A stretch of 62,833 nt of DNA, counting the filler, from Thermoplasmatota archaeon (GTDB taxonomy: Archaea; Thermoplasmatota; E2; JACPAO01; JAHFTW01), in the NCBI GenBank assembly GCA_041623215.1. It is 17 parts of 17 records of this genome, joined end to end, with 100 filler letters (N's around TTAATTAATTAA, not from the genome) between each part and the next. Parts side by side here need not be neighbours in the genome. Positions count along the whole stretch, not along the records: positions 59,650 to 62,833 come from JBFJXH010000179.1; 16 more parts are not named here. One strand, given 5' to 3'. How positions within the stretch are numbered: the first letter of the stretch is position 1; each line of letters starts with the position of its first letter. Below are positions 59,550 through 62,833 of the stretch, in pieces. The notes beneath the pieces were generated by a model. That model did not search any database. It was not told the DNA's origin and saw only the letters and a program-made list of their open reading frames with translations. The translations under genes and the position numbers were made by a program.

Positions 59550-59650
59550 NNNNNNNNNNNNNNNNNNNNNNNNNNNNNNNNNNNNNNNNNNNNTTAATTA
59601 ATTAANNNNNNNNNNNNNNNNNNNNNNNNNNNNNNNNNNNNNNNNNNNNC

Positions 59651-62600
59651 ATGGAGGCGGATTTGGGGATTGATACGGTGAAGCAGGCGGAGTTGTTTGG
59701 TTTGATTCGCGAGGCGTATGAGGTGCCGCTTCAGGATGGCTTGCAAATCAAGGACTACCCGACGCTTCGCGCCGTCGCCGATTACATTGCATCGCAAGCG
59801 GAGGTAGGCTCCTCGCCAAGCGCCACCGCTGAGGTGCCAGTGGCCACCAGCGTCCCAAATCCCGCGCAAGCATCTGCCCCTGCCGTGGCCAGCGGCCCGT
59901 CCAATGTCGCAGCCGCTTCACCATCAGGTGATGGGGATATTTTGGCAACCGTCACGGCGCTGGTCGCTGACCAAACTGGCTACCCGGTCGAATTGCTGGA
60001 GCCGGACTTAGACATGGAGGCGGACTTAGGCATTGATACCGTCAAGCAGGCGGAACTGTTTGGGCAAGTGCGCGAGGCATTCGGGATTGCGCCCATAGAC
60101 GGCCTTCAACTGAAAGATTACCCGACGCTTCGAGCGGTGGCTGGCTTTGCCGCGCAACACCGGGCTGGCGGAGAAACCACAGCCCCGCTACAGGACGCGG
60201 AGGCACCTCGCACGCGCGCCGCTACGACGCCGGCATCCGACATTGTTCGCCGCATACCAGTTTGCCGGCCCGCCGCGACGCCCAACAGGGACAATGCCAT
60301 TTCCCCCGGTGTGATTTTGGCCGTCGGTGACTTTGACCGAGATTTCTTTGATGCCTGGAGCGAGGCTGGCTTTTCGGTGACGCAGCGTATTCGTGAAGGC
60401 GACGTGCTGGCGGGCATCATTTGCTTGGCGACGCGACCTGACGCGTCGTCGGCGTCGTCGCGAGCTGGCGCGCTCTTCGACGCCGCCAAGGCCCATCAGG
60501 ACAAGTTGGGCAAGGGGACGTTTGTGGCCATTGTCACCAGGCAGGACGGGGCACATGGTGTGTCGCCGGACGCGGCCATCCGCGACCCTGCAGCAGGGGC
60601 CGTGGCAGGGCTTGGCAAGGCCTTGGCGAAGGAACTGCCCGACGCAGTGGTCAAGGTTGTGGACCTTCATCCTGGCACGCCCGGAGCAGCCCAACTCGTC
60701 ATGAACGAAATTCTTCAAGGCGGAACCCGCACGGAGGTAGCTTTCGGCCAGGATGGCGACCGATTCGCCATCGATGTCATCGAGGAAGCAATTGCCCAAG
60801 CGGTCCCCGACGTGGCGGGCAAGAACCTCGTGGTTTCCGGTGGGGCTCAAGGCATTACCGTGGAATTGCTGCGCTCGCTGGCGCCGCAGCAGCCGCGCTT
60901 GCTGCTGCTGGGCCGGACGCCGCAACCGAACGAAGCAGCGACTTGGGCCACGTGGCAAGAGTCGGACTGGGCCGCCGAGCAAGAGCGTGTCATCGATTCA
61001 CTCAAGCAGGCGGGTGAACGCCCGACGCCGGTTGCCATCAACAAAGCTGTTGATGCCAAGCGCAAGGCGGCCGAGGTGTATCGCAACCTGAACGACTTGC
61101 AACGGGCCGGTGCACAGGTCTTGTACGCCCCGGTGGATGTCACGGACCCCGGCGCCGTTGCAGAGGCCGTTTCGTGGGCGCGTCAAGAATTTGGCCCCAT
61201 TGACGGCGTCCTGCATGCGGCCGGCGTGGAAATTAGCAAGGATTTGGCAAACAAGCCCCGTGACCAATTTGACATGGTTTTCGGCGTCAAGCATGCAGGC
61301 TGGCAGGCGTTGATGGCGGCAACGGCGGAGGACCCAATTACAGTCGTGGCCGCCTTCACGTCGGTAGCCGGACGATTTGGCAACTTAGGGCAAACCGATT
61401 ACGCGGCGGCCAATGAATTCCTTGCCAAGGCCGTCAAGGCCGAAGCCGCGCGGCGAACGTCGCAGGGCAGCCCCTGCGCCGGATTTACCATCGCGTGGGG
61501 GCCCTGGGGCGAAACCGGTATGGCGACCAAAGGCAGCATTCTCACCATCATGCGAGAGTCAGGCGTAACTCCCATTCCCACCGCCCATGGGGTCCGACAT
61601 TTCCTGGCCGAATGGGCCGCCGCCACGACCGCGCCGGGGCAAGTCTCGGAGGCCGTGGTTGCCGGTATGCTTGGCGACATCGACGCGGATGGGCAAATCG
61701 TGGCGCCGATGTCCGACGAGGCCACCCTGCCCGGCAAGGCCACGGACCAGGTGGCAGAGCTAGAGGCTAGGGTAGCCGCTGCGCCTGCGCGTTTCCGCTT
61801 GCTAGACCGTATTGTCGAGGCGGACATAGGCAAACGCATCGTGGCGGAGGTCGTAATCGACGCGGCCCGCGACCCCTACCTACGGGACCACAGTATTGAC
61901 GGTGTCCCGGTCTTCCCCGGCGTTTTTGGCGTGGAAGCGTTTGCCGAGGCGGCCACATTTTTGGCCGAGCGCGACACGCACGTGATTGGTGCTCGCGACG
62001 TCCGGTTCGTATCGCCCCTGAAACAACTCAAGGAAGCGCCCGTGGTAGCAAGGCTGGAGGCAACAGCGGTCCGCGCTGAAACGGACGCGGGGATGGATGT
62101 CGCTTGCCGTCTGACGACCCAGTTCATCGGGCCGGATGGAAAGCCGCACGGCGAGCCTCGATTGCACTTTGAAGCAACACTCGTGCTGGGTGAACCGTCG
62201 CCGCCAGACTTTGGCAAGGTCCCCGTCACGACGCGTGACCGCGATGCGTCCATGGTGTACGACCGCTTCTTCCATGGCCCATCCTTCCAAGTGATTGGCT
62301 TTGCCGGGCCCATTGAAGGGCACTCGGTCGGCCGCTTCCGGCGACCGGAGGAAGCTCACTTCGGTGCTGGTGAGGCGCTTTTCCTAACTCATCCAATGAT
62401 TCACGAGGCGTTGTTCCAGTTGGCGGGGCTTCACGCCATGGAACATGGCGGTGTCATGGCACTGCCAGCGGCCATTGGGCACTTGGAAATCCTTGAGCAG
62501 GAACGCCCCGAAGGTGAGGTGCGCCTGTCGGCGACCAGCCTTGGCAAGGATAGCGGCGGCTTGTGGCGTTATGACTTGGTGGCCATCAGTACCGATGGTC

Positions 62601-62833
62601 GCGTCATCACCCGCATGAAGGACTTCGCCTTGGTTGAAGCAGGCCCGGCGCCGATGCCCGGCGCCAAGCAGGATGGCTCTTTGGCCGCTTCGCCGGCCCT
62701 TGAAGGCACGGTGGCTGACCCCGACGCCGGCGAAGACGTGGATGTTCGCCTCACGGAGATTGGCGCGGCAGCACCGATTCCCGCGGGCGGCATTGCCTTG
62801 CCTGAAATTGACGGGGTGGTGCTAGCTGCGTGC
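59651..62833 (+). CDS. PUFA-synthase (PfaA)-like type I polyketide/fatty-acid synthase fragment: ACP-ACP-KR-DH, open at both ends (not in ORF track)
   Basis: 1061 codons with no stop. Two ACP units with MEADLGIDTVKQAELFG (the second preceded by TGYPVELLEPDLD) and an Ala/Pro/Ser linker. KR: VSGGAQGIT, HAAGVE, FTSVAGRFGNLGQTDYAAAN, WGPW. DH: DHSIDGVPVFPG, FHGPSFQ, HEALFQ. Confidence 0.92.
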   Translation, partial: MEADLGIDTVKQAELFGLIREAYEVPLQDGLQIKDYPTLRAVADYIASQAEVGSSPSATAEVPVATSVPNPAQASAPAVASGPSNVAAASPSGDGDILATVTALVADQTGYPVELLEPDLDMEADLGIDTVKQAELFGQVREAFGIAPIDGLQLKDYPTLRAVAGFAAQHRAGGETTAPLQDAEAPRTRAATTPASDIVRRIPVCRPAATPNRDNAISPGVILAVGDFDRDFFDAWSEAGFSVTQRIREGDVLAGIICLATRPDASSASSRAGALFDAAKAHQDKLGKGTFVAIVTRQDGAHGVSPDAAIRDPAAGAVAGLGKALAKELPDAVVKVVDLHPGTPGAAQLVMNEILQGGTRTEVAFGQDGDRFAIDVIEEAIAQAVPDVAGKNLVVSGGAQGITVELLRSLAPQQPRLLLLGRTPQPNEAATWATWQESDWAAEQERVIDSLKQAGERPTPVAINKAVDAKRKAAEVYRNLNDLQRAGAQVLYAPVDVTDPGAVAEAVSWARQEFGPIDGVLHAAGVEISKDLANKPRDQFDMVFGVKHAGWQALMAATAEDPITVVAAFTSVAGRFGNLGQTDYAAANEFLAKAVKAEAARRTSQGSPCAGFTIAWGPWGETGMATKGSILTIMRESGVTPIPTAHGVRHFLAEWAAATTAPGQVSEAVVAGMLGDIDADGQIVAPMSDEATLPGKATDQVAELEARVAAAPARFRLLDRIVEADIGKRIVAEVVIDAARDPYLRDHSIDGVPVFPGVFGVEAFAEAATFLAERDTHVIGARDVRFVSPLKQLKEAPVVARLEATAVRAETDAGMDVACRLTTQFIGPDGKPHGEPRLHFEATLVLGEPSPPDFGKVPVTTRDRDASMVYDRFFHGPSFQVIGFAGPIEGHSVGRFRRPEEAHFGAGEALFLTHPMIHEALFQLAGLHAMEHGGVMALPAAIGHLEILEQERPEGEVRLSATSLGKDSGGLWRYDLVAISTDGRVITRMKDFALVEAGPAPMPGAKQDGSLAASPALEGTVADPDAGEDVDVRLTEIGAAAPIPAGGIALPEIDGVVLAAC

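Follow-up and report, generated by a model that had tools for sequence, protein, structure and literature searches.

We identified, in a Thermoplasmatota metagenome-assembled genome (G000; 1.94 Mb, 88% complete), a multidomain synthase whose acyl carrier protein (ACP) domains present Thr in place of the Ser that normally accepts phosphopantetheine. Comparison with its homologues leads us to predict, with considerable confidence, that 4'-phosphopantetheine is attached to this Thr by an Sfp-type phosphopantetheinyl transferase (PPTase) fused to the same protein.

The window, i.e. the whole stretch of 62,833 nucleotides analysed, is made up of 17 separate contigs with N spacers between them and internal ttaattaattaa, with no linkage across the spacers. 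Positions 59650-62833 are contig C179; the window genes upstream of 59650 lie on other contigs and were set aside. The Thr ACP motifs are found at the extreme start of C179, where the contig boundary truncates the first ACP copy, which lacks helix I. The ATG at 59651 was ruled out as a start codon, as C179 begins inside the frame, in which Pfam scans identified ACP, KR and DH domains (Table 1).

Table 1. Features identified in the window, with positions counted along the whole stretch.
Feature	Positions	Strand	Details
Thr-type ACP, C-terminal two thirds	59651..59797	+	PF00550 positions 26-67; Thr codon ACG 59675-59677
Inter-ACP linker, Ala/Pro/Ser-rich	59798..59935	+	
Complete Thr-type ACP, 76 residues	59936..60163	+	PF00550, model; Thr codon ACC 60038-60040
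Ketoreductase (KR)	60830..61510	+	PF08659, aa 394-620; GGAQGI nucleotide motif, DYAAAN catalytic Tyr motif
PKS-type dehydratase (DH)	61799..62635	+	PF21089, PF14765; His motif DHSIDGVPVFPG
Linker into fused Sfp-type PPTase	62648..62833	+	Overlaps first 186 nt of C37 (98.4%)
FabI-like enoyl reductase on contig C163	10822..11754	+	Orthologue (52%) of Poseidoniales gene directly upstream of synthase

Both ends of this frame continue on other contigs. At its end, contig C58 (minus strand) has a KS-AT-KS-ACP open frame of 1700 aa, the ACP of which is full and Thr-type, and the last 141 nt of this frame recur without a mismatch at the start of C179. The last 186 nt of C179 overlap the beginning of C37 (minus strand) at 98.4%, and there the frame continues through the sole PF01648 match of the genome to a stop. 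The C179 frame would thus be the middle of a KS-AT-KS-ACPn-KR-DH-PPTase gene spread over three contigs, a join made from overlaps with no spanning read, which is well supported because relatives in the family carry the same layout as one frame. These same-family relatives have a single frame of 2769-3663 aa that encodes 3-4 Thr ACPs and, at the C-terminus, a PPTase; in a genome of the same genus (G346), three ACPs lie within one intact 2769-aa frame. The original prediction spoke of both ACP domains, and two Thr copies are indeed present on C179; judging from the C58 overlap and from G346, the protein probably has three ACPs and not two. The two KS, the AT, KR, DH and PPTase are each intact and in frame.

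The synthase of G000 is preceded by a carboxyltransferase gene and followed by a gene that its sequence suggests to be bioY-like, for which NCBIfam gave no match, and by genes for biotin carboxylase and biotin carrier protein. Upstream of the carboxyltransferase, C58 carries genes that we take to resemble a UbiA-type prenyl-phosphate phosphoribosyltransferase and a DprE1-like FAD oxidoreductase, and the same stretch adjoining the synthase cluster presumably encodes a small multidrug-type membrane protein and a GT-C-like protein. A locus titled 'uncultured Halobacteriales archaeon' (L079) has the same frame length and motifs as G301, from the Thermoplasmatota family of G000, and a label conflict is likely.

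Both Thr codons that had been predicted, ACG in the first and ACC in the second copy, are present, and both copies read DLGIDTVKQAELFG and score above the PF00550 cut-off. Every ACP copy in G000 has GIDT at the N-terminus of helix II, where canonical ACPs have the Ser of GxDS; the G000 domains are variant ACPs, not canonical ones. The helical-bundle fold is retained, as found by Pfam, structure prediction and Foldseek. The AlphaFold model of the second ACP (pLDDT 96) places Thr35 as the first residue of helix II (H35-49), and a Foldseek search with this model returned ACPs, with TM scores of about 0.8-0.87 to solved structures. In the family profile, the Thr is aligned onto the Ser of solved ACPs (PigH, Plasmodium, Aquifex and others), and the alignments examined show no other position of the domain at which a Ser is conserved.

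We investigated the distribution of the Thr motif using three different domains as queries, and found it to be common to proteins of Chloroflexota, Elusimicrobiota, Acidobacteriota, Myxococcales and Leptospiraceae. An ACP query recovered 863 long homologues, with Thr in 573/573 ACP motifs among the matches listed (120 of 863) plus the query; four other regex matches in this set were rejected as not being ACP motifs. As this set is biased towards Thr, we relied on sets selected by the second KS (KS2) and by KR. With a Chloroflexi protein as the KS2 query, all 385 complete motifs in 120 proteins, mostly from Chloroflexota and 15 of them shared with the ACP-query set, read D-T-V, with no Ser and 7 motifs truncated or unreadable. 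The KR query matched 126 of 401 Thermoplasmatota genomes, from which 40 loci were picked, non-randomly, to span families. These contained 119 Thr and 8 Ser copies (127 in total, one false regex match having been set aside): 35 genomes were all-Thr, two had an array of Thr copies with a single Ser copy among them, and three were all-Ser. Eleven further synthase stretches comprised six with only Thr, one with Ser in the first copy and four without an ACP in the stretch. Within the Acidobacteriota, the phylum of a Solibacteraceae record, 7/201 genomes matched KS2, and 22/22 ACP copies in 7/7 clusters were Thr-type. Among 79 metagenome loci, 20 were Thr-type and the other 59 were canonical PfaA-type Ser clusters. 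The number of ACP copies varies from 1 to 6 across the family, and single-ACP proteins (P0160, P0168, P0203 and L193) also have Thr. Thus, the claim that the Thr is maintained is strongly supported by its high conservation among homologues that were picked via other domains.

All four Thr codons occur at this site in the Thermoplasmatota set (ACC 54, ACG 46, ACT 11, ACA 8), indicating that the Thr is not there by chance, and the sole alternative residue among the homologues is Ser. In a KS1 tree (FastTree, 156 rows, midpoint root), the Thr enzymes formed one clade (0.86), sister to the PfaA-like enzymes, which are of the Ser type; nested in its Poseidoniales subclade (support 1.0) were the three all-Ser genomes. 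With the root so placed, this looks like one gain of Thr and a later reversion to Ser. The use of all four Thr codons, the exchange only to Ser and the nested position of the all-Ser genomes indicate that the site keeps a hydroxyl. Exchange between Ser and Thr is typical of helix N-terminal capping positions, and is hence no proof of use as a nucleophile.

The family also shows variation in domain architecture, with extra Thr ACPs ahead of the first KS, a PF03060 reductase-like N-terminus (L076) and N-terminal extensions of several hundred unannotated residues; these variants span L062, L066, L067, L068, L069-L073, L074, L075 and L076.

The co-occurrence with PPTases that the original prediction raised is borne out, as a PPTase is fused (18) or adjacent (20) to the synthase in 38 of the 40 loci. 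The remaining two, both of family f38, have no linked PPTase and their genomes carry PPTases elsewhere. In G000 the PPTase lies directly downstream, fused in frame on C37; in the Acidobacteriota, a PPTase was found in 2 of 7 stretches, which have short flanks only. A PF01648 match is present in 122/126 synthase-bearing genomes vs 20/275 others, counts in which related genomes are not independent. The PPTase profile matches Sfp at 5e-23, and also human AASDHPPT and EntD. Aligned to Sfp, the G000 enzyme has THR, GIDLE and WAAKEAAFK at the SH, GxDxE and WxxKExxxK motifs. The residues aligned to Sfp H90, D107, E109, E151 and K155, which we take to be catalytic, are invariant in 49/49 linked PPTases, against a mean column identity of 26%.

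The Thr-linked PPTases group with PPTases fused to Ser-type synthases. A Lys present in 55/55 Thr-linked PPTases was rejected as a Thr-specific residue, as the Ser-acting EntD has Lys too; it is lost in the PPTases of 3/3 all-Ser revertants (L052, L054 and L055), which form one clade. Alignments with Ser-acting relatives yielded no Thr-specific PPTase residue. The option that phosphopantetheine is linked to Thr by a cognate PPTase is strongly supported by the fusion of the PPTase to the same protein; no residue was found that would mark this PPTase as dedicated in the sense of having evolved specially for Thr.

We additionally searched for other carriers that the PPTase might serve. In eight Thr-type archaeal genomes (G000, G037, G081, G048, G007, G189, G225 and G097; G037 being a single contig), every above-cut-off PF00550 match lies in the synthase and there is one PPTase match each, so that, as far as a PF00550 search reaches, G000 has no Ser-type ACP elsewhere. 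A weak PF00550 match in G037 was rejected as not being an ACP. The archaeal PPTase would accordingly appear to have no other visible substrate, a divergent free carrier being able to escape Pfam. Two acidobacterial hosts have other Ser-type carriers, with 13 and 8 PF00550 matches.

These searches bear on a first alternative, that the Thr domains are apo scaffolds and that the synthase uses CoA esters or a free Ser carrier served by the PPTase, which we regard as improbable. The Ser-type carriers of the acidobacterial hosts would suit it, as would the CoA-based pathway described for Sulfolobus in the accessible part of bioRxiv 10.1101/2024.07.05.601840. Experimental substitutions of Ser by Thr also favour it: in the available text of the respective papers, spinach ACP-I S38T is reported to have lost function (PMC9310384, citing older work) and E. 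coli ACP S36T to behave like an arm-less variant (PMC13343975). That Thr abolishes the function of these ACPs counts against a Thr carrier. However, apo scaffolds sit poorly with the absence of other carriers from 8/8 Thr-type archaeal genomes, with the fusion of the PPTase to the synthase in 18/40 loci, with ACP copies that vary between 1 and 6 like working PfaA arrays, and with all-Ser revertants that share the same operon. The option, offered in the original prediction, of non-carrier domains in an enzyme that acts on CoA esters and fits archaeal metabolism fares no better, since the Thr motif is also bacterial, and an intact PPTase and AT are kept.

In the preferred reading, that of a phosphopantetheinylated Thr, the PPTase would move phosphopantetheine from CoA, with Mg2+, onto the secondary hydroxyl of the Thr. 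Kinases and Fic enzymes routinely use Thr as the acceptor in phosphoryl transfer. The AT would then load malonyl from malonyl-CoA, which is likely supplied by the flanking biotin-dependent carboxylase genes, and KS, KR and DH would extend and reduce the chain by ordinary thioester chemistry. The AT motif GHSLG is conserved in 40/40 loci, and the two KS domains each retain their cysteine motif.

Enoyl reduction would likely be performed in trans by a separate FabI-like enzyme. Pfam scans found no ER or TE domain in the synthase chain, save for an N-terminal PF03060 in 1/14 relatives, and the protein thus lacks the in-chain ER and release domain of a complete type I fatty acid synthase. We found no clear match for a PfaD/FabK-type reductase (PF03060) in G000, G037 or G007. 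In Poseidoniales there is a fabI-synthase-PPTase operon, with fabI directly upstream in L038, L039, L044, L047, L050, L052 and L054. The FabI-like gene of G000 lies on a separate contig, C163, which is inside the window by chance, and its product likely supplies the missing ER step.

About equally unlikely as the apo scaffold is that the Thr bears some other group, such as an acyl chain esterified directly to it or, like citrate lyase, a modified arm derived from CoA. The linked PPTase is of the standard Sfp/EntD-like type and lacks none of the catalytic residues, the KS Cys-His-His and AT motifs fit thioester chemistry, and the Ser revertants retain the same partners. What speaks for a different group is that the hydroxyl is conserved yet the side chain differs, that positions +1, +3 and +4 of helix II deviate from those of PfaA (TVKQA vs SIKRV), and that the second KS is unusual.

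The Ser copies that do occur were of two kinds. In family f22 (L070, L073 and L212), Ser is found only in the first ACP of an array of 4-6 copies, the rest being Thr, with AGC and TCG encoding this Ser in the two genomes checked; this first ACP is possibly a specialised first carrier. In the all-Ser revertants, the motif reads DSIKQAE, with Val replaced by Ile at +1. Counts for the Thr site and the +1 position (TV 660, SI 6, TI 5, SV 2) hint at packing compensation between the two residues, the SI cases all belonging to one clade.

A third alternative, that the Thr copies are poorly modified and merely tolerated while occasional Ser copies do the work, could draw on the three f22 genomes with a Ser copy heading a Thr array. 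We consider it very improbable, as Ser copies are absent from 35/40 Thermoplasmatota synthases, from the readable KS2-selected proteins and from several single-ACP proteins. Finally, faulty sequencing or assembly or an altered genetic code, to which only the fragmentation of the locus at the ACP repeat could point, is refuted as a source of the Thr by hundreds of independent proteins from several phyla and by the use of all four ACN codons; the original prediction had already argued against sequencing error. Covering contigs from public runs (X1 records 1 and 5, X2 records 9 and 10; two runs of one study, possibly the source sample and so not independent) agree with the window, with no differing letter, and thus no Ser, at the two codons.

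Attachment of phosphopantetheine to Ser is generally regarded as universal, and carriers with a non-Ser motif are usually taken to be dead. In the literature searched, which excluded most subscription journals, neither natural Thr-linked carriers nor the motif turned up. The gene family is known; that literature yielded no description of carriers with Thr throughout the family and a cognate PPTase retained. We tentatively propose, with rather less than even confidence, that the Type R synthases, to which the G000 enzyme is assigned below, have the first natural carriers phosphopantetheinylated on Thr, forming with their PPTases an orthogonal pair for which ordinary hosts would have no substitute, and that together with FabI and the biotin-carboxylase genes they would constitute a complete ACP-dependent type I pathway of de novo fatty acyl synthesis in Marine Group II and related Thermoplasmatota. 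If so, a multi-phylum Thr family with an intact cognate PPTase would overturn the Ser-only rule, the usual Sfp or AcpS might fail to activate expressed Type R synthases, and the pair could be of use for orthogonal labelling or activation. The synthase was matched in 58/58 sampled genomes of family f30 (Ca. Poseidoniaceae-like), taken as Ca. Poseidoniaceae because the FabI encoded upstream of the synthase shares 92% identity with a protein carrying that name. Poseidoniaceae are abundant marine archaea, and the enzyme bears on whether archaea build acyl chains on ACP.

By domain order and KS grouping, the G000 synthase belongs to the Type R lipid synthases of Shulse and Allen 2011 (PMC3098273). 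The available text of that paper lists Koribacter, Solibacter, Elusimicrobium minutum and Roseiflexus as hosts, and describes an order of KS-MAT-(second KS fold)-ACP(3-6)-KR followed by PPTase, often beside acetyl-CoA carboxylase genes. The same order is found in G000 across the C58/C179 overlap, with the number of three ACPs deduced as above, and is intact in relatives. Proteins labelled Roseiflexus and Elusimicrobium are among the close homologues, and on the KS1 tree, which was built from genomes other than the five named in the paper, the enzyme groups (clade 0.86) with P0124 of Roseiflexus sp. and P0047 of Elusimicrobium posterum. In the available text of the paper the second KS goes under the name CLF, yet this domain retains Cys-His-His in G000 (C58) and in most relatives; the same text lists no DH and no archaea, whereas here there is a DH, an archaeal host and a fused PPTase. 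That text returned 0 matches for threonine and 0 for serine, and one supplement was likewise without matches.

The PfaA-type PUFA/HglE synthases (DLGIDSIKRVE) share with Type R the ACP subfamily (TGYP...EADLGID; TIGR02813 match) and tandem arrays, and are its sister group on the KS1 tree. They differ in having Ser in 136/136 distinct copies vs Thr in 665/673 copies of Type R, as counted with patterns that left the position free, and in lacking a second KS and DH in one chain. In place of Ser ACPs, a single KS and pfaB/C/D partners, the G000 synthase has Thr ACPs, two KS, and carboxylase and bioY-like flanks. The available text of PMC6619796 gives GXDS as common to all ACPs, and that of PMC12391972 gives DSL, DSI and DST motifs, the Thr of which is at +1 and not the attachment site. 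The Type R PPTase keeps the catalytic residues of the Sfp/EntD/PptT enzymes, and its fusion recalls the in-cis C-terminal PPTase of fungal FAS alpha.

For archaea, the accessible part of PMC9902471 mentions, without detail, that four Thermoplasmatota MAGs express polyketide synthase transcripts. Degradation of fatty acids is described for Marine Group II archaea (PMC6461757, PMC6336850), with no match for 'polyketide' or 'acyl carrier' in the accessible text of these two papers. According to the available part of 10.1101/2024.07.05.601840, archaea seem to be without FAS I, and nearly all of them without ACP and ACP synthase. The ACP-independent fatty acid synthase of Sulfolobus described there is, like Type R, a candidate archaeal route to acyl chains; its pathway is CoA-based, whereas Type R is a type I enzyme that bears both ACP and PPTase.
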